Shown here one piece after another: positions 2,426-11,967 of a stretch of 64,000 bases of DNA (its first letter is position 1; every line of letters starts with the position of its first letter). Origin of the DNA: Pseudomonadota bacterium (GTDB lineage: Bacteria; Pseudomonadota; Alphaproteobacteria; MPNO01; UBA2964); the NCBI GenBank assembly GCA_036336885.1, contig JAYZFG010000015.1, positions 142,126 to 206,125 on the forward strand, given 5' to 3'. The notes below the pieces were generated by a model that was not told the DNA's origin, searched no databases, and saw nothing but the letters and a program-made list of their open reading frames with translations. The position numbers and the translations under genes were made by a program.

Positions 2426-2953
2426 TTATATCTCCAAATCGATATCCAAGGCTTGGAAAATACGAGTATGCATATTGTAAGTACCAATCAAAACCGTTAG
2501 CCCTATAATTTCTTCCTCATTAAATTCTTCTGCAACCGCATCATAGACATCATCAGGCACCTGAATATCCAGTGACATAGAATCAGTGTATGCTAGAACA
2601 TTACGATCTCTCTCATCAAAAAGATCAGAATTTTTCCAATCTTCAAGCGCATCACACTGAGACACCGTTAGTCCCTCCGCTTCTGCTAACTCCGGGACAT
2701 GCTGGTTAATCACGTACTGAACTCTATTCAGGTGAGCGATACGAATAATCACCATCTCGCGTAGCCGACCATCTAAACCAAGATCCCAACGCACCATATT
2801 CAGATAATCAAACCATCCGCGCGCAGCGGGTGGATTGTGAAGCAACATCTTATATATATTCAGAAGTTTTCCACGACGACCAGCTTTTAACTTTTCAACA
2901 AAATCCGAGAATTCTGGTTTATTTTCTGCATCGACAAGAGAAACGCGCGCCAT
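2426..2953 (-). CDS. Carboxymuconolactone decarboxylase (AhpD-like fold) family protein without a CxxC motif
   Basis: 175 aa. REMVIIRIAHLNRVQYVINQH matches the CMD-family core helix. It has a single Cys, so it is not a redox AhpD. It lies 49 nt downstream of the Sec-peroxiredoxin gene on the same strand. Confidence 0.7.
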   Translation of the reverse strand: MARVSLVDAENKPEFSDFVEKLKAGRRGKLLNIYKMLLHNPPAARGWFDYLNMVRWDLGLDGRLREMVIIRIAHLNRVQYVINQHVPELAEAEGLTVSQCDALEDWKNSDLFDERDRNVLAYTDSMSLDIQVPDDVYDAVAEEFNEEEIIGLTVLIGTYNMHTRIFQALDIDLEI

Positions 2954-3002: not shown

Positions 3003-3488
3003 CTACTGTTGAGCTTCCGCTTTCCTTCTTTCGAAAAGCTGAACTAATTTTATAACGTCAGCGGCATCCATTCTAGCGAGCGGTCCAGCACTATAGCTAG
3101 AGGAAACAACTTTTCCATCATCGCCAAGCAAAAATTCAGAAGGCTGAATGATACCCCGGCGGTCTTCCCACCACGCATCAATTTGGCGTGCTTGATCGCG
3201 TGTCACTCCCTGACCAATAGGAAATGAGACTTCATCGGCCACCAACTTTGCTTCGTCCCCTGTATCAATACTTGCAGCAATGACTTTGATACCCTCTGCT
3301 TCAAGGGTAGATTTTTCCTTTTCAAAACCGACCAACTGCCGGCGGCAGTATGGTCACCAATGCCCGCGATAAAACAGGATCATCTGGTACTTCGCATCGA
3401 CCAGATCTGGTATTTTTGCGGTACCCCCATCAACCAAATTTAAGGTCATGTCGGGAAAGTCATCACCAATATCTAATTTTGTTGCCAT
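3003..3488 (-). CDS. Peroxiredoxin/redoxin-like (AhpC/TSA fold) selenoprotein with UGA-encoded Sec45 in a W-U-P-Y-C motif
   Basis: Track ORFs 3354..3641 and 3003..3335 are in the same frame, separated only by TGA at 3356..3354. The read-through gives ...MILFYRGHW-U-PYCRRQLVGFEKEK..., which is the WCPxC redox motif with Sec at the first Cys position. Start chosen at ATG 3488 (MATKLDIGDDFPDM). A hairpin follows directly, and selA/selB/tRNA-Sec are adjacent. Confidence 0.85.
3330..3355 (-). promoter_or_regulatory. SECIS-like mRNA hairpin immediately 3' of the in-frame UGA of the peroxiredoxin-like gene
   Basis: mRNA U-GACCA-U-ACUGCC-GCC-GGCAGU-UGGUC. This is a 5-bp lower stem, a bulged U, a 6-bp upper stem and a small G-containing apical loop, starting within the UGA codon. 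Confidence 0.6.
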
Positions 3489-3615
3489 TAATTTACTCCG
3501 TTTAAAAACAACCTCATTTTCTATCACCTTTCTAAAAATGCAATACCGACAATTGCTGAATTGAATAAATAGTCCTAATCTGACAATAGAATATCTTTGA
3601 AGGAGAAAAAATCGT

Positions 3616-4290
3616 ATGGATCCCCGTTTTGAACAATTCAAGGACTTGGACTGGGGCTCTATGAGCTACCCAGAAAAGAGAGAGGTTTGGCTCCAGATAT
3701 CCGATATCAGTGCCGAAGACTTTGACACGATGATGGCCGCGCAAAAAGCTCGTCAAGACCAAGTGCCGAAGATCGGCGAATTAGCGCCAGACTTCAAACT
3801 AGAGCGTCTAGACAGAACCAGAAGACGTACCGGAGAGTATGTAAAACTTTCAGACCTGAGAGGAAAGTCGGTAGCGCTATGTTTTGGTTCTTATACCTGA
3901 CCACCCTTTCGTGAACAGTCCGTGAGACTGAACGAAATTTACGAGGCAAATAAAGACAATATTGAATTTTTTCTGGTTTATGTACGTGAGGCACACCCTT
4001 CAGATGGCTGGCAGACACTTCAAAATCTTGAGCCTGAGATCTTTTATAAGGCCCCTAAGACAGCTGACGAACGTGCTGAAATCGGTCATGCCTGCCAGGT
4101 TGGTCTTGATCTCAGATACCCAATGCTCATCGATGGTCTCGATGACGAAACGGAAAAGAATTACGTGGCCGCACCAATCCGATTATTTGTCATCGGCCCG
4201 GATGGCAAAATTACTTATGCCGGGAAGGAAGGCCCACACTTATTTGACCCGGATGGCTGGGAGCAAGCTATCAAAGCACAATCCATATAA
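3616..4290 (+). CDS. Iodothyronine deiodinase-like (thioredoxin-fold) selenoprotein with UGA-encoded Sec95
   Basis: Track ORFs 3616..3900 and 3922..4290 share a frame and are joined through TGA 3898..3900. The read-through gives SVALCFGSYT-U-PPFREQSVRLNEIYEANKDNIEFFLVYVREAHPSDGW. This parallels the vertebrate deiodinase core FGS.TUP.F...(V/I)Y(I/V).EAH.SDGW, and later Y.A.P.RL..I...G.I.Y.G..GP. AAGGAG lies about 8 nt upstream of the ATG. Confidence 0.88.
3908..3936 (+). promoter_or_regulatory. SECIS-like mRNA hairpin 3' of the in-frame UGA of the deiodinase-like gene
   Basis: UUCGU-GAA-CAGUC-[CGUGA]-GACUG-A-ACGAA. Two 5-bp helices are separated by an internal loop. The apical loop contains GU and starts 23 nt after the U of UGA, within the usual bacterial SECIS spacing. 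Confidence 0.6.
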
Positions 4291-4308
4291 ATTAAATCAC
4301 TATGAAGC

Positions 4309-4340
4309 CCGGTGGGGACCTAGATGACAGCCCCCACCGG
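4309..4340 (+). promoter_or_regulatory. Hairpin sequestering the selA Shine-Dalgarno region, with the selA start codon in its loop
   Basis: CCGGTGGGG (4309..4317) is perfectly complementary to CCCCACCGG (4332..4340): 9 bp, 8 of them G:C. The 14-nt loop carries ATG 4324..4326, the 5' arm contains the SD-like GGTGGGG, and the 3' arm is selA codons 3-6. No U-tract follows, so it is not a canonical terminator. Confidence 0.5.
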
Positions 4341-5748
4341 AAATATCCTCTCACTAATACCCTCAGTAGATAAGCTTTTACGAACGACGGGTGCTAAAAG
4401 CCTCATCAATTCTTTTGGTCGCCAGTCTGTAACCAACATTGTACGTGAAGAACTTGCAACTCTCAGAGCAACTCTTTCGCATAACGGGGGAGAATCAGTC
4501 CGCGAGATCTCTATCCAACAAATTTTGCAAACTGTAGCCGAGCGACTTGAAAAAAATCTTAAACCATCACTGAAATCGGTTTTAAATTTGACCGGGACAG
4601 TGCTCCATACAAACCTGGGACGCGCGCCCCTCCCTAAAGAGGCAATTAAGGCAATGGCCGAGGTGGCCGAAGGTGCCAGCAACCTTGAATACAACCTTGA
4701 TTCGGGGAAGCGAGGAGACCGAGATACGCATCTTGAAGATATATTAATTAATCTCATTGGTTCAGAGGCGGTAACAATTGTTAATAATAATGCTGCGGCT
4801 GTTCTTCTCATTCTAAATTCCCTGGCTCTTCGTAAAGAGGTTCTCGTCTCTCGCGGTGAGTTGATTGAAATAGGTGGTGCTTTTCGTATCCCAGAGATAA
4901 TGAAACGTGCCGGAGTGAAACTTCGAGAAGTGGGAACGACTAACCGGACTCATTATCGTGACTTTGCCGAGTCAATTGATACAAAAACCGCAATGGTGAT
5001 GAAAGTCCACACCAGCAATTATGTGGTACAGGGATTTACTGCAGCTGTCCCAGAGCCAGAGTTGGCAGAAATAGCTCACTCAAATCAGCTGCCATTCGTA
5101 ACAGACCTTGGAAGCGGGACAATGATCAATTTGGAGAAATACGGACTGCCCCACGAACCAACTGTTCAGGAGGCCCTTGCCAACGGAGCTGACCTAGTGA
5201 GTTTCAGTGGTGACAAGTTACTCGGCGGCCCGCAAGCCGGCATAATTGCGGGGCGGGGCGACCTAATAAAGAAAATAAAAAGGAACCCCATGAAAAGGGC
5301 TATGCGGTGCGATAAAATGACTATTGCGGCCCTTACAACAATTTTACACCTATATTCCGATCCCGACAGCGTCGCTACGCGCATACCCGTTCTAAGATTG
5401 CTAACCCGGACACCAGAGGAGATTTTTAAAACCGCGGAGAGGCTGAACCCGATTATAAACAAAAGCCTGGGTGAAGATTTTTTAAGCGATATTCAACCAT
5501 GCAAGAGTCAGATCGGTAGTGGAGCCATGCCAACTGAAAGGCTAGAAAGTTTCGCCCTGGTAATAAAACCACACAAATCCAAATCGACAGGCACTATTTT
5601 AGCACGTCTGGCCTCTTCATTTCGTAAATTACCTGTGCCGGTGATTGGGCGCATCCAAGATAATGCCTTATGGTTGGATTTACGTTGTCTGGAAGCCAAT
5701 CATGAAAAATCTTTCATCAACCAAATAAAAACACTGTCAATAAATTGA
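4324..5748 (+). CDS. selA: L-seryl-tRNA(Sec) selenium transferase
   Basis: 474 aa. N-terminal LIPSVDKLL, the PLP-lysine region [16 protein letters not shown] and the overall length are typical of SelA. It is followed by selB and tRNA-Sec. Confidence 0.93.
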
Positions 5749-7658
5749 TCATTGCAACATCTGGACATATCGACCACGGCAAAACAATACTGGTAAAAGC
5801 ACTAACGGGTATCGATACGGATCGGCTTCCTGAAGAAAAAACTCGAGGTATTTCCATCGACCTAGGCTACGCATATCGCGAACTGGATCATGATAAAATT
5901 CTTGGTTTTGTCGATGTACCGGGTCACGAAAAATTTGTCCGGAATATGCTGGCGGGTGTTACTGGTATTGATTATGCCTTGCTAGTGATCGCCGCCGATG
6001 ATGGCCCTATGCCGCAAACGGAGGAACACCTCGCAATTCTTGACCTGCTTGGCGTTTCAGGAGGTGCTGTTGCGATAACCAAAATTGATCGTGTTGAGGC
6101 TAGTCGGTTAGAGGAAGTTATTACACTCACTGAGATTCTGCTTGATGATACCAGCCTTAGTGGGGCACCAATTTTTCCTGTCTCGGGCATCACCGGAGTT
6201 GGGGTCACTGAGTTATGGTCCCATTTGAAAACCCTAGCTTCTAATTTTACAAGCAGCCGGCGTGGCGGAAATTTTAGGCTCGCTATTGATCGGTGTTTTA
6301 CGGTACCTGGCGCCGGGTTGGTTGTTACAGGCAGTGTTTTTTCAGGTGATGTAAAAATCGGAGAGCGATTAACTCTATCACCAGCAGGCATACAGGTCAG
6401 GGTGCGGGGTATTCATGCCCAGAACCGAAATGCGGAAAGTGGAGAGGTGGGCCAGCGCTGTGCGATTAACATTACCGGGCCGGATATACAGAAAGGTCAG
6501 ATACATCGCGGCGATTGGTTATTAGATGAGGCAGTTCACGCCCCTACACGACGTTTTGACGCGCGTATTCGGTTACTTAAATCCGAGGCACGGCCTTTAA
6601 AACATTGGAGCCCCGTTCACCTGCATACAGGAACCGCTGACATCAGCGCGCGAGTAGCCTTACTTGATGGAAAATCTATTCTGCCCGGGGATACTGGGCG
6701 TGTACAGTTAGTCCTTGATGAATCTATTGGGGTTTTACATGGAGACCGCTTGATCCTTCGTGATCAATCGGCACGCCGGACTATAGCTGGTGGTGATGTT
6801 ATAGACCCCTTTGCTCCTGCGCGGGGCCGTTCTAGACCGGAGCGGCTAGCCGCCGTCTCTGCGATGGAAATTAAAGAACCTCAAGAAGCTTTAACATCTC
6901 TAATTCTAGCGGAACCGAACGGTACCAATTTATCGAATTTTTCTATCAGTCGAAATCTAACAGCTGACGATGCGGCCGCCGTCTGGTCCAATACCGATAT
7001 AGTTATTTCACACCAGGATAAACAAAAATTAGGGTTTTCTGAAAATCGTTGGGACGTTTTGTGCAAGAGTATTTTGATGGGACTAGAACAATGGCACAGG
7101 GAAAAGCCGGATCAGCTTGGACTTGCAGCGAACAATCTCAGGCTAAGCCTAAACCCTAGACCGCCTTTACCATTCTATAATGCCGCAATCGGATATTTAG
7201 CAACGAGCGGCAAGATCTTGCTTGCTAACCGGCAACTGCGCCTTCCCGGCCACCAAACCAGCATCAGTGCACAAGACAAAAAACTATGGGCCGAGGTCCG
7301 GCAAACTATGGAAAATGCCGGGCTAAGACCTTTATCACTAAATGAAGTTGCTGATGAAATGGACATCAAGGCAAATACATTGATTGCCTTTATGCGTCGT
7401 GCCGCTAAATCAGGCTTCGTCATTCAAATATCCAAAAATCGGTTTTTATTGCCAGAGGCAATAAATGAACTCGCCGAAATTGCAGAAATACTCGGCAAGG
7501 ATGGCAAAATAACAGCGGGTGACTTTCGCGATCGGTCTGTAATTGGGCGAAATATGGCTATAGAAGTGTTGGAGTTCTTCGATAAGGCGGGATTGACTAA
7601 ACGCACCGGCAATTCGCGGGAAATTGTCAAACCTGCAATAGAAGTTTTTGGAAGATAG
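5745..7658 (+). CDS. selB: Selenocysteine-specific translation elongation factor
   Basis: 637 aa. (M)[13 protein letters not shown]...[19 protein letters not shown]...DVPGHEKF closely parallels the E. coli SelB N-terminus, and the long C-terminal extension is consistent with the SECIS-binding winged-helix domains. The TTG start overlaps the selA stop (TTGA). Confidence 0.93.
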
Positions 7659-7700
7659 GATTTACGTGGCGTCATAAAGATTTTAAATATTAGAAATTGC

Positions 7701-7796
7701 GGAAGGGATTCGTGAGCCGGTGCTGCGCTCGGGCTTCAAACCCGTTGAGGGGCGTTAAACGTGCCTGGTGGGTTCAACTCCCACTCTCTTCCGCCA
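7701..7796 (+). tRNA. selC: tRNA-Sec (anticodon UCA)
   Basis: 96 nt. It has an 8-bp acceptor stem (GGAAGGGA / UCUCUUCC with one G:U), an anticodon loop CUUCAAA presenting UCA, and a long variable arm (about GAGGGGCG-UUAAA-CGUGCCUG). The T arm is GUGGG-UUCAACU-CCCAC, followed by discriminator G and an encoded CCA. It lies 42 nt downstream of selB on the same strand. Confidence 0.9.
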
Positions 7797-9926: not shown

Positions 9927-10835
9927 CTATTGCGACTTTTGGAGTATCGCGAGCCAAATACCAGCGACAACAAATGCCGCACCGATTAAATGATACCATT
10001 CGAGGGTCTCACCTAGCAGTAGAATAGCTAACCCTCCCGCAAAGATCGGATACAAGTTTCCAAAATAACCTGCTTGAGCACCCCCCGCCCGATAAGTGCC
10101 CTCATTCCAGGCTGTCGTACCAAAAAATCCCGCAAAAATACCAAGGTATAGGAAGAGTAAAATACTCTCCTTAGTGAATGGGGTTGGCTTAATAAGCTGG
10201 AACTCCCATATATAAAGCGGGGTCATGATAACCACACCTATTCCTGCCAGGGCAGTCATAAATGCCATTATATCGATATTTTCAGGTTTCCAACGCATCA
10301 AAAATGCTTGCAAAGCCCACAAAATCACAGCCACCAGAGCCCAAATATCGCCATCCTGAATACTCACCGTTTTGATGACGCCGATGTCTCCGCGAATGAT
10401 AAAGAGACTGGCTCCGGCTATTGAGAAAATTACACCCCACCACTGCCGCCCGGTAATCCGCGTTTTTAAAAATATTAAGCCAAGTAAAAGAACCAAAACC
10501 GGAAGGATTGACTGAATTAGAGTTGCCTGCAGCGCTGTCGTTTTCTGGAGTGCTATATAAAATGTACAATTAAATCCAACGATCGTCAGAAGCGAATAAA
10601 TCAGTAAGAATTTCCTACTCTCCCAGAGTTGGGTACGCTGATTCCAGGTTGAGTGACCAAAAAATATCAAAAAAAATACTAATGCTATTGCCCACCTAAA
10701 AAAATTCAGCGTCAGCGGTGGAATATCAGCTACAGCCGCCGCTCGGCCCACAATCGCATTACCGGCCCAGAACAACACACCAGCAGTCAAAAGGGCATAG
10801 CCAGAAATCAAGCGGCCTTTACTATTTGTATCCAC
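9927..10835 (-). CDS. DMT superfamily (EamA-type) transporter
   Basis: 302 aa, about 10 predicted TM helices arranged as two EamA-like halves. Confidence 0.75.
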   Translation of the reverse strand: MDTNSKGRLISGYALLTAGVLFWAGNAIVGRAAAVADIPPLTLNFFRWAIALVFFLIFFGHSTWNQRTQLWESRKFLLIYSLLTIVGFNCTFYIALQKTTALQATLIQSILPVLVLLLGLIFLKTRITGRQWWGVIFSIAGASLFIIRGDIGVIKTVSIQDGDIWALVAVILWALQAFLMRWKPENIDIMAFMTALAGIGVVIMTPLYIWEFQLIKPTPFTKESILLFLYLGIFAGFFGTTAWNEGTYRAGGAQAGYFGNLYPIFAGGLAILLLGETLEWYHLIGAAFVVAGIWLAILQKSQ

Positions 10836-10878
10836 GCTCGATGAATTCCTAATAATGGTAATTTCTTAACTTTCGAAC

Positions 10879-11967
10879 TTAATCCGCCCCAGCGCCTTCC
10901 AGCATATCAAGTGGAGCAGTATGCACCGTCCCATCGACCTCAATTCCGCAAATATTTTCACGAAAACCGGGCGGAGTTGGCCGACCATCAGGATCGGTTA
11001 ACCACAAACGCATTAGATGGCGTTTCTTCTCTTTTTCATCAAAATCTTCAAACGCTGTTCGAGTATGCAACATAACATGGTTATGTAAGAACTGAATGTC
11101 ACCGACCTCAAAGTCCATCGGCATATAGAGCTCTTTAGCGAGTTCTTGGAACATATCCAGAGCTTCAATATCACTTTTTGTAAATTGTGGTACCCCCGGC
11201 AATGATTGTGCCTTTCGGACATGAGCTCCGCCAGCCCGAATTGAGAGATATCCATCATGAAACGCAAAGATCGGCATGCAATAAAATGGATCCTCCCCTT
11301 CTTTCACCTCTCCATGTTTTGTGAAATAAAAAATTTTACATAACAACTCGGCAAGATCAGGACGCCGTTTCTGCATCTCATTATATATTGTAATTGAGCT
11401 TGCTATAAGACTTGCTCCCCCGCTCTTTGCTGGATGCAAGCAAAGCAAGCCAACATAGTCACATTGGTCACTATGGAAATTCATCTGTGCAGCGGTCTGA
11501 TACCCGCGCACCATTGGATCTTTATAATCCTTCCCAAGGTTTTTGACATGCCCTAACAAATGACCCATTGGATTTTGTGATACTGCTCGACCAAGATATG
11601 TCCCCATGCCAAAAAAGGCGGCCCCAACCTGCCAGCGGGTCATCTCTTCAACAGGCAACCCTCGTACCAGGACGAAACCGCGGCCTTCGGTCAATTCGTG
11701 ATAAAAATCTTCAAGTGCAGGCCCAACTTTAGGCAAGGGAAATGACTCACGTGTGATGTCTTTGATATCAATATTATCCCTTTCTAGGTCCCCCACACGG
11801 TCCATAAGCTCATTGATTTGGCGCTGAGAAAGAGAATAAATCCACTCATAGGATTTTTTAGCCATGTCCTCAGCATACCAAGCCGCCGGATCAGGAGCCT
11901 CCATTCCGGGCATCGACATTTGACGGGAACCATTGGCGATAGCGCCTCCATCAGGGATTGTAAACAT
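10879..11967 (-). CDS. TauD/TfdA-family Fe(II)/2-oxoglutarate dioxygenase
   Basis: 362 aa. NFHSDQCD (HxD iron ligands) and a distal LHNHVMLHTRTAF His/Arg region. Substrate unknown. Confidence 0.75.
   Translation of the reverse strand: MFTIPDGGAIANGSRQMSMPGMEAPDPAAWYAEDMAKKSYEWIYSLSQRQINELMDRVGDLERDNIDIKDITRESFPLPKVGPALEDFYHELTEGRGFVLVRGLPVEEMTRWQVGAAFFGMGTYLGRAVSQNPMGHLLGHVKNLGKDYKDPMVRGYQTAAQMNFHSDQCDYVGLLCLHPAKSGGASLIASSITIYNEMQKRRPDLAELLCKIFYFTKHGEVKEGEDPFYCMPIFAFHDGYLSIRAGGAHVRKAQSLPGVPQFTKSDIEALDMFQELAKELYMPMDFEVGDIQFLHNHVMLHTRTAFEDFDEKEKKRHLMRLWLTDPDGRPTPPGFRENICGIEVDGTVHTAPLDMLEGAGAD

Follow-up and report, generated by a model that had tools for sequence, protein, structure and literature searches.

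A deiodinase-like selenoprotein encoded directly upstream of selA, selB and selC in a marine alphaproteobacterium

For only a small number of enzymes is selenium almost impossible to replace, and the deiodinases belong to them. The closest described relatives of the gene considered here form the prokaryotic deiodinase-like family, which, together with its pairs of selenocysteine (Sec) and cysteine forms and its bacterial selenocysteine insertion sequence (SECIS), was published in 2005 (Zhang, Fomenko & Gladyshev, Genome Biol 6:R37, PMC1088965). That paper presented 4 sequences, with the SECIS drawn in its Fig. 7, and its survey of the Sargasso Sea comprised 4 Sec-containing and 6 Cys-containing members of the family; the family was counted again in the Global Ocean Sampling (GOS) data in 2008, with 22 sequences (PMC2398784), and is listed in reviews of 2022 and 2026 (PMC9312934, PMC13188914). 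Here we analyze a gene at positions 3616-4290 of a 64-kb stretch of contig JAYZFG010000015.1 (the window, that is, the whole stretch of DNA that was analyzed; G+C content, 46%). The host is a marine Rhodospirillaceae-like alphaproteobacterium, and the DNA of the window is 93.7% identical across 10.3 kb to a contig from a Rhodospirillaceae metagenome-assembled genome (MAG; locus L001). An earlier reading of the window (hereafter, the original prediction) noted that deiodinase-like selenoproteins had been predicted from marine metagenomes, in line with the 2005 report of both the family and its SECIS. The locus shares with the published family the PF00837 domain, the UGA at the Sec position of deiodinases, the SECIS directly downstream, the occurrence of Sec and Cys forms and the origin from marine bacteria, with no essential difference; it adds one more member to a selenoprotein family already known by prediction and is, as such, a correct re-discovery.

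The product of 3616-4290 is one selenoprotein of 224 residues that belongs to the prokaryotic deiodinase-like family (PF00837); a SECIS hairpin helps to recode the UGA at 3898-3900 as Sec95. The broader explanation that we favor, with a probability of about three in four for the whole, is that this deiodinase-like selenoprotein is co-transcribed with selA and selB, possibly works through a cycle of Sec95, a second conserved cysteine (Cys160) and a redoxin, and may, as a low-confidence guess, be a dehalogenase. As the original prediction had it, the open reading frames (ORFs) 3616..3900 and 3922..4290 share one frame and are separated only by the TGA, which is reproduced both by the ORF list and by the translation, where the single internal stop among the 224 codons falls inside FGSYT-stop-PPFR. 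The read-through product contains the deiodinase motifs FFLVYVREAHPSDGW and YVAAPIRLFVIGPDGKITYAGKEGP. Its alignment to PF00837 (T4_deiodinase), which had been suggested as a check, gives a significant match of 78.6 bits (cut-off 27; E 5.8e-22) when the residue at the in-frame UGA is entered as Cys, as was also done for the redoxin described below; the match runs unbroken across the TGA (residues 32-212 of the protein against positions 54-226 of the 237 in the profile). A sequence search of the PDB places mouse Dio3 (4tr3, E 1e-12) and mouse Dio2 (9h48) at the top, with the TGA aligned to the position at which Sec was changed to Cys in both crystal constructs. The NCBIfam model NF038285 ("deiodinase family protein") scores 161.5 bits, below its cut-off of 250, with model positions 174-340 of 347 matched; judged by this coverage, it appears to describe longer forms of the family, possibly those fused to EF-hands. 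Such longer members, of about 355-380 residues, are P0080, P0083, P0087-P0090 and P0092-P0095, which belong to Planctomycetes where the organism is named.

Should the TGA be a true stop, the stretch would be a pseudogene or two small ORFs followed by a chance hairpin. Standard ORF calling does split the gene; the protein database contains the family mostly as C-terminal pieces, about 125 residues long, which begin just past the TGA; and the z-score of the hairpin in the single sequence is only -2.1. However, the comparison with homologues speaks strongly to the contrary. When one genome per GTDB species was scanned, at least 582 stretches that encode a relative were found, of which the best 80 were kept; these belong to marine Rhodospirillaceae-like and other Alphaproteobacteria, Dehalococcoidia and other Chloroflexota, Acidobacteriota, Planctomycetota, Myxococcota, Opitutales and MAGs of Armatimonadetes. 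The homologous codon is TGA in all 80 of these loci, from several phyla, within an almost invariant FGSYT-TGA-PPFR, and conservation of the protein sequence persists 3' of the TGA in each of them; no genuine stop or frameshift followed by unconserved sequence, which would have spoken against the original prediction, is seen. Homologues with Cys at this position carry FGSYTCPPFR (P0079, P0081, P0091), and two full-length database entries show W there, the result of translation under a code in which TGA stands for Trp. In nine close relatives, the substitutions at codon positions 1, 2 and 3 number 403, 169 and 1759 downstream of the TGA and 335, 223 and 1470 upstream of it, with synonymous codon changes outnumbering non-synonymous ones about 2.5 to 1 on both sides, so that the segment 3901..4290, too, evolves as coding sequence. 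Given, in addition, the single Pfam stretch across the TGA, the covariation in the SECIS and the adjacent Sec machinery (see below), and that a split would sever the catalytic motif of a thioredoxin fold, the true-stop explanation is effectively refuted, and we assign it a negligible probability. In a library of 1.84 billion cluster representatives, 1718 relatives are found at E <=0.001 and 466 at E <=1e-10.

The second line of evidence for recoding is the SECIS. The original prediction described a two-helix hairpin at 3908..3936 with a GU-containing apical loop; such a hairpin indeed folds, at 3907-3937, with a lower helix (3907-3912/3932-3937), an upper helix (3916-3920/3926-3930) and the apical loop CGUGA (3921-3925, with G3922 and U3923). 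Its fold energy is -11.9 kcal/mol, and 4 of 200 shuffled sequences fold equally well; taken alone, the single-sequence fold is weak evidence, modestly above chance. A covariance-model scan had also been proposed earlier; Rfam, applied to the whole window at gathering thresholds and to 3280-4360 at E up to 10, gave no match to a SECIS family, and the case for the SECIS was built instead on covariation counts, which do support the hairpin. These were obtained from 55 homologous gap-free sequences, with 500 shuffles and with controls in which the pairing partners were slid. In the upper helix, 98% of the cells are paired and three of the five pairs show compensatory changes, a covariation score reached by none of the shuffles, and sliding the partners by 1-3 columns makes the pairing fall to 15-45%. 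The pair 25-33, for instance, is GC in 28 sequences, UA in 12, AU in 9, and GU and UG in 3 each. The lower helix is only 80% paired and shows no compensatory change. Covariation affects the first base of a Ser/Thr/Ala codon and the third of an Arg codon, and it is RNA pairing, rather than the protein sequence, that accounts for these changes.

Comparison of the first 43 nt past the TGA reveals two SECIS architectures within this one family, each backed by compensatory changes. In the window and in L001-L050 (Alphaproteobacteria and others), a CGUGN loop starts 24 nt from the U of the UGA. In L051-L080, from Acidobacteriota, Dehalococcoidia, Planctomycetota and one armatimonadete, a variant with a GGU loop at nt 21-23 lies about 4 nt nearer the UGA, and GC/CG flips occur in three of its four pairs. 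The SECIS of the window gene differs in placement from that of animal Dio1-3, which resides in the 3' untranslated region (UTR) rather than within the coding region.

The protein was further characterized using an AlphaFold2 (AF2) model as a structural proxy. This model is of P0002, an orthologue with 66% identity and with W at the Sec position (mean predicted local distance difference test score, pLDDT, 84.4). A Foldseek search of the PDB with this model ranks Dio2 (9h48) first, with E 7.6e-13 and a TM-score of 0.79 on the target, and Dio3 (4tr3) second, at an identity of about 24-26% in the structural alignments. Thus Pfam, the PDB sequence search, Foldseek and the invariant TGA concur with the original prediction of a deiodinase homologue with UGA at the catalytic Sec. 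The N-terminal membrane helix of the animal enzymes, which the original prediction had reported to be missing, is indeed not found in the first 94 residues, where the maximum 15-residue Kyte-Doolittle mean is 0.61; instead, the model and the sequences show a conserved N-terminal extension of two helices. We infer, with good support, an enzyme of the thioredoxin fold that carries the deiodinase-type insertion and is soluble in the cytoplasm.

To compare individual residues, 81 bacterial Sec forms were aligned with the catalytic cores of Dio2 and Dio3, with the roles of residues in the proton relay and the substrate site taken from the Dio2 structure paper (PMC11592359). The equivalents of Dio2 Ser127, Thr129, Tyr157, Glu160 and His162 are 100% conserved in the 81 bacterial sequences, that is, five of the six proton-relay residues of Dio2 (S92, T94, Y122, E125 and H127 in the window protein) are kept. 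There is good support for the retention of the catalytic core of deiodinases as a whole, namely, Ser92, Thr94, Sec95, Tyr122, Glu125, His127 and Trp132. Beyond this core, the window protein shares with animal Dio1-3 the thioredoxin fold with its insertion, the motifs FGSxTUPPF and Y-x-x-EAHPSDGW, and the ED-R, D173, Y183, R189-L and G-P positions. The motifs quoted in the original prediction are present; the Pro of Y.A.P.RL, however, is specific to the bacterial family and corresponds to Phe in mouse Dio2 and Dio3. Further residues are conserved only in the bacterial proteins: Arg99, Asn137, Cys160 (99%) and Pro169. The differences from the animal enzymes include the lack of the membrane anchor and the extra conserved Cys160 and Arg99. 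Cys160 lies 65 residues past Sec, and no Cys occurs at +3, the sequence there being U-P-P-F/Y in 81 of 81 proteins. The tables of the two reviews cited above give the family motif as "UxxC", in conflict with this sequence.

Not all members of the family have the topology of the window protein. An N-terminal hydrophobic helix (15-residue Kyte-Doolittle means of 2.1-3.0), that is, the topology of animal deiodinases, is seen in the acidobacterial Sec forms L063, L067, L068, L070, L071, L074, L079 and L080, some of whose candidate start codons are uncertain, and the planctomycete members L072 and L073 have signal peptides. The family is, hence, predicted to span cytoplasmic, anchored and exported forms.

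What Sec decoding needs, namely, SelA, SelB and tRNA-Sec, is encoded directly downstream of the deiodinase-like gene (Table 1). The gap to selA is 33 nt on the same strand, as originally predicted, with the selA start at 4324 confirmed, and holds no terminator-like site. The TTG start of selB overlaps the selA stop (TTGA, 5745-5748), which suggests translational coupling. The tRNA-Sec gene follows selB after 42 nt (7659-7700) and is not nested inside it; nesting in selB is found in some other Alphaproteobacteria (PMC8124441). No selD was found among some 29 ORFs scanned with Pfam, a non-exhaustive scan limited to the 64 kb of the window. The order of the deiodinase-like gene, selA and selB is retained in 15 of the 16 closest loci (protein identity 62-96%). 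At L020 and L024, selAB is situated some 3 kb upstream, and the two planctomycete loci have selAB within 6 kb on the opposite strand; at most of the other loci, no selA was found within 6 kb. The linkage to selA is, accordingly, specific to a clade and is not a family-wide trait. Because of the short gap without a terminator-like site and the gene order in the closest loci, co-transcription of the deiodinase-like gene with selA and selB is an inference with good support.

Around the start of selA, the RNA forms a GC-rich hairpin of 9 bp (4309-4317/4332-4340; -19.3 kcal/mol, z = -2.6), whose loop contains the selA AUG (4324-4326) and whose 5' arm contains the purine-rich stretch for ribosome binding. 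Twelve related loci have it as well, six of its ten pairs show compensatory changes, and it probably limits or regulates the translation of selA. In Escherichia coli, selAB is controlled by a SECIS-like element of the 5'UTR that is bound by SelB (Thanbichler & Bock 2002, as outlined in PMC13449736). Both are RNA hairpins near the translation start of selA in a selAB operon; however, the hairpin described here encloses the AUG and the Shine-Dalgarno (SD) sequence, whereas that of E. coli lies 3 nt upstream of the SD, and it is located inside a polycistronic mRNA, behind a selenoprotein gene. Moreover, its loop is not a conserved loop of the SECIS type. The hairpin may bind SelB or may simply throttle the translation of selA.

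These features raise the possibility that the deiodinase-like gene serves, besides or instead of encoding an enzyme, as a Sec-sensing leader for selAB: passage of UGA 3898 would set the number of ribosomes that reach the end of the gene and, thereby, the opening of the hairpin at the selA ribosome-binding site. The conserved gene order with its terminator-free gap of 33 nt, the covarying hairpin, with the AUG placed in the loop and SD-like purines in the stem, and the precedent from E. coli are all compatible with such a device. On the other hand, the hairpin starts some 19 nt past the stop codon, by our estimate probably out of reach of the terminating ribosome; apart from the AUG, its loop has no conserved G-U of the SECIS type; and the scheme implies positive feedback, with less Sec leading to less SelA. 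Most members of the family are not located beside selA and are, nevertheless, under strong constraint at the protein level, which argues that the enzyme function is primary. The leader, therefore, seems to us improbable.

The original prediction suggested that the deiodinase-like protein may be the main client of the local Sec machinery. This suggestion is weakened: it is not the sole client, since 127 nt away, on the opposite strand, we find a second selenoprotein gene, for an AhpC/TSA-family redoxin with a UxxC motif (Table 1). The TGA of the redoxin is kept in 21 related loci, and its own SECIS hairpin, which begins at the UGA and is part of a -20.3 kcal/mol structure of a longer stretch, is also present in most orthologues. 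A scan of the 64 kb for in-frame TGA produced no credible third selenoprotein gene; the other candidates proved to be ordinary adjacent genes or short tails. Of the 24 closest loci, 20 have the redoxin gene next to the deiodinase-like one, among them loci without selAB nearby; the redoxin gene is divergent in L001-L009, L012-L016 and L021 and in tandem, just upstream, in L017, L020, L023 and L024. The two genes are, thus, a conserved pair that has survived an inversion, and the UxxC redoxin may be the reductant of the deiodinase-like enzyme. The divergent intergenic region of 127 nt (3489-3615) contains an element, TGCAA-N7-CAATTGC, common to at least 10 related loci, which is possibly an operator.

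The following catalytic cycle can be envisaged. The selenolate of Sec95 would attack an electrophilic atom of a small substrate; the resulting Se-X intermediate would be resolved by Cys160, yielding a selenenylsulfide, as in atypical 2-Cys peroxiredoxins; and the selenenylsulfide would be reduced by a redoxin, for which the adjacent UxxC selenoprotein is the best candidate and thioredoxin an alternative. This mechanism draws support from the full conservation of the relay residues, the 99% conservation of Cys160 and the adjacency of the redoxin gene in most of the closest loci; still, we would grant the Sec95/Cys160/redoxin cycle somewhat less than an even chance.

What might the substrate be? 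The residue comparison indicates that the catalytic machinery of deiodinases is kept and the thyronine pocket is not; since the residues that contact thyronine are unconserved, the substrate is not expected to be an iodothyronine. Our leading guess, a tentative one, is that carbon-bound iodine or bromine might be removed reductively from a non-thyronine phenolic. Several observations favor dehalogenation. The deiodinase-specific insertion and the relay residues are near-invariant, and Sec is strongly retained, all 80 best matches being Sec forms; replacement of Sec by Cys lowers the activity of Dio about 1000-fold (PMC11592359). A further hint comes from six loci of one alphaproteobacterial subclade, in which a close orthologue of NpRdhA, the cobalamin-dependent reductive dehalogenase of Nitratireductor pacificus (4ras, E 3e-199; TIGR02486, 152.6 bits), is encoded 1.4-5 kb downstream of the gene. 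It is the sole new pointer toward the halogenated phenolics that the original prediction named, which are, as substrates, speculative. To our knowledge, the only characterised members of PF00837 are deiodinases.

The close rival to dehalogenation is peroxide reduction: the same selenoprotein could be a peroxidase or a thiol/selenol-disulfide oxidoreductase that forms an antioxidant module with the UxxC redoxin and the AhpD-like protein encoded next to it, a possibility that we take seriously, if at well below even odds. The same stretch of the protein that matches PF00837 gives weaker but significant matches to AhpC-TSA (PF00578, 43 bits; cut-off 26) and Redoxin (30.3 bits). The fold is that of atypical 2-Cys peroxiredoxins and of TlpA/ResA-type oxidoreductases, with the nucleophile, likewise, at the start of a helix (predicted at 96-112); S-x-x-U is spaced like T/S-x-x-C of peroxiredoxins, and a conserved Arg and a Pro likewise precede the strand with the G-K-I turn; and Cys160 could act as a resolving Cys, to which it may be topologically equivalent. 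The invariant Pro187 and Arg189 (PxR-LFVI-x3-G-K-I) resemble what we take to be the segments of redoxins and peroxiredoxins that carry the cis-Pro and the Arg. Against this identification, the EAHPSDGW insertion, which is absent from peroxiredoxins and TlpA-type redoxins, is almost invariant across phyla, and its near-invariance argues for a chemical step common with deiodinases. Furthermore, of the peroxiredoxin motif PxxxT/SxxC, the Pro at -7 is missing (Leu88), although S-x-x-U and Arg189 are there; the invariable U-P-P-F/Y leaves neither the CxxC nor the UxxC of an oxidoreductase; and the peroxiredoxin Pfam scores are far below that of PF00837.

Several facts weigh against a dehalogenase, and they are best considered together. 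The sixth proton-relay residue, the substrate clamp and the Phe of the substrate site correspond to other residues in the bacterial proteins (P147, E205 and P187 in Table 1), and the invariant Pro187 looks like the cis-Pro of thiol-disulfide oxidoreductases. Directly behind Dio2 and Dio3, the Foldseek ranking continues with ResA/TlpA-type redoxins and peroxiredoxins. The flanking operon, with its AhpC/TSA-type redoxin and AhpD-like CMD protein, has an antioxidant flavor. No family-wide conserved gene partner emerged when every ORF up to 4.5 kb away from the gene was included in a clustering of the 80 loci. The link to NpRdhA is a lead, not evidence, being the synteny of one clade that may represent a single inherited arrangement; within the window itself, no RdhA homologue was found. 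Finally, a general redox role was proposed by the authors who described the family (PMC1088965), and our literature search turned up no experiments on a bacterial member. Dehalogenation is, nonetheless, our leading guess for this selenoprotein, with peroxide reduction close behind.

The clustering of neighbors yielded only partners at the level of clades, namely, selA/selB, the UxxC redoxin, CMD, ACAD and DLH, along with small groups of EamA, TauD, ECH and LysR; the largest cluster consisted of antisense shadow ORFs of the deiodinase-like gene itself. The CMD/AhpD-like protein, encoded downstream of the redoxin gene, scores weakly against YciW-related and peroxidase-related models of NCBIfam; it contains a single Cys and neither CxxC nor CxxU, the motifs typical of redox-active AhpD-like (seleno)proteins. 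In several lineages, genes for an EamA-family transporter and a TauD-family dioxygenase are again and again found a few kb from the deiodinase-like gene, namely, in the window (9927..11967, minus strand) and in L014, L034, L035, L041-L043, L046 and L047; this may be due to chance, both families being very common in such genomes. The RdhA-like neighbor in L031 is a 361-residue Fe-S protein of the QueG/RdhA superfamily and was not counted as a dehalogenase.

Table 1. Features of the locus and residues of the encoded protein. Positions are those of the window unless a locus is named; residue numbers are those of the 224-residue protein.
Feature	Position	Strand	Basis or remark
Shine-Dalgarno-like AAGGAG	3600..3605	+	10 nt before the deiodinase-like ATG; read from the sequence
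Deiodinase-like selenoprotein gene	3616..4290	+	224 codons, Sec95, N-terminal extension (two predicted helices, soluble)
UGA as Sec95 in FGSYT-U-PPFR	3898..3900	+	Homologue alignment, Cys forms, Dio2/Dio3 alignment, downstream substitutions
SECIS hairpin	3907..3937	+	Single-sequence fold and covariation across 55 homologous loci
selA-start hairpin CCGGUGGGG / CCCCACCGG	4309..4340	+	Fold and compensatory changes in related loci
selA (selenocysteine synthase)	4324..5748	+	PF03841 E 2.7e-158, plus Se-cys_synth_N
selB (Sec-specific elongation factor)	5745..7658	+	GTP_EFTU, Beta-barrel_SelB and SelB winged-helix domains
tRNA-Sec (selC), anticodon UCA	7701..7796	+	ARAGORN; Rfam RF01852, 66.4 bits
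Second selenoprotein, AhpC/TSA-family redoxin, HW-U-PYC (UxxC), TGA 3354-3356	3003..3488	-	PF00578 E 1.3e-20
Redoxin SECIS hairpin	3329..3356	-	-16.5 kcal/mol; bulged U, 3-nt loop GCC
Conserved motif TGCAA-N7-CAATTGC	3539..3558		Alignment of 10 intergenic regions
CMD/AhpD-like gene	2426..2953	-	PF02627
NpRdhA orthologues	L017 10325-12517, L018 11400-12662, L019 8746-10938, L020 8035-10230, L023 7776-9971, L024 8037-10232	-	
S92	residue 92		Dio2 Ser127; conserved in bacterial family, common to Dio
T94	residue 94		Dio2 Thr129; conserved in bacterial family, common to Dio
U95	residue 95		Dio2 Sec130; conserved in bacterial family, common to Dio
Y122	residue 122		Dio2 Tyr157; conserved in bacterial family, common to Dio
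E125	residue 125		Dio2 Glu160; conserved in bacterial family, common to Dio
H127	residue 127		Dio2 His162; conserved in bacterial family, common to Dio
W132	residue 132		Dio2 Trp167; conserved in bacterial family, common to Dio
P147	residue 147		Dio2 His182 / Dio3 His219, sixth proton-relay residue; Pro in 95%
P187	residue 187		Dio2 Phe224, substrate site; invariant Pro
E205	residue 205		Dio2 Lys241 / Dio3 Arg275, substrate clamp; variable position

Compared with the published accounts, in the parts of them that are accessible, what is added here is the linkage to selA, selB and selC in one alphaproteobacterial clade, the gene of the UxxC redoxin partner, the conserved Cys160 and the anchored acidobacterial forms. 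Practical consequences follow for annotation, most database entries for the family being cut at the UGA, with only the C-terminal fragment left, and for experiment: the locus is a clean and complete example, in which the gene, its SECIS, selA, selB, selC and a candidate redox partner are assembled within 5 kb and could be cloned as a unit. Going further, one might speculate that the deiodinase-like protein and the UxxC selenoredoxin would constitute a dedicated pair for the reductive removal of iodine or bromine from natural halogenated phenolics in seawater (and, in the case of the anchored acidobacterial forms, in soil). This would make the pair the prokaryotic ancestor of thyroid-hormone deiodination in animals, and in the present clade its expression would be tied to selA and selB both physically and, via the hairpin, translationally; we consider this full picture unlikely.

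The sequences of bacterial deiodinase relatives have been known for about twenty years. If the enzyme is a peroxidase, deiodination would have evolved from peroxiredoxin chemistry by a few changes. If, as we prefer, it dehalogenates natural iodo- and bromo-aromatics, it would represent an oxygen-tolerant, cobalamin-independent route in the cycling of halogens in the sea and in soil, and the origin of the animal deiodinases would be explained.

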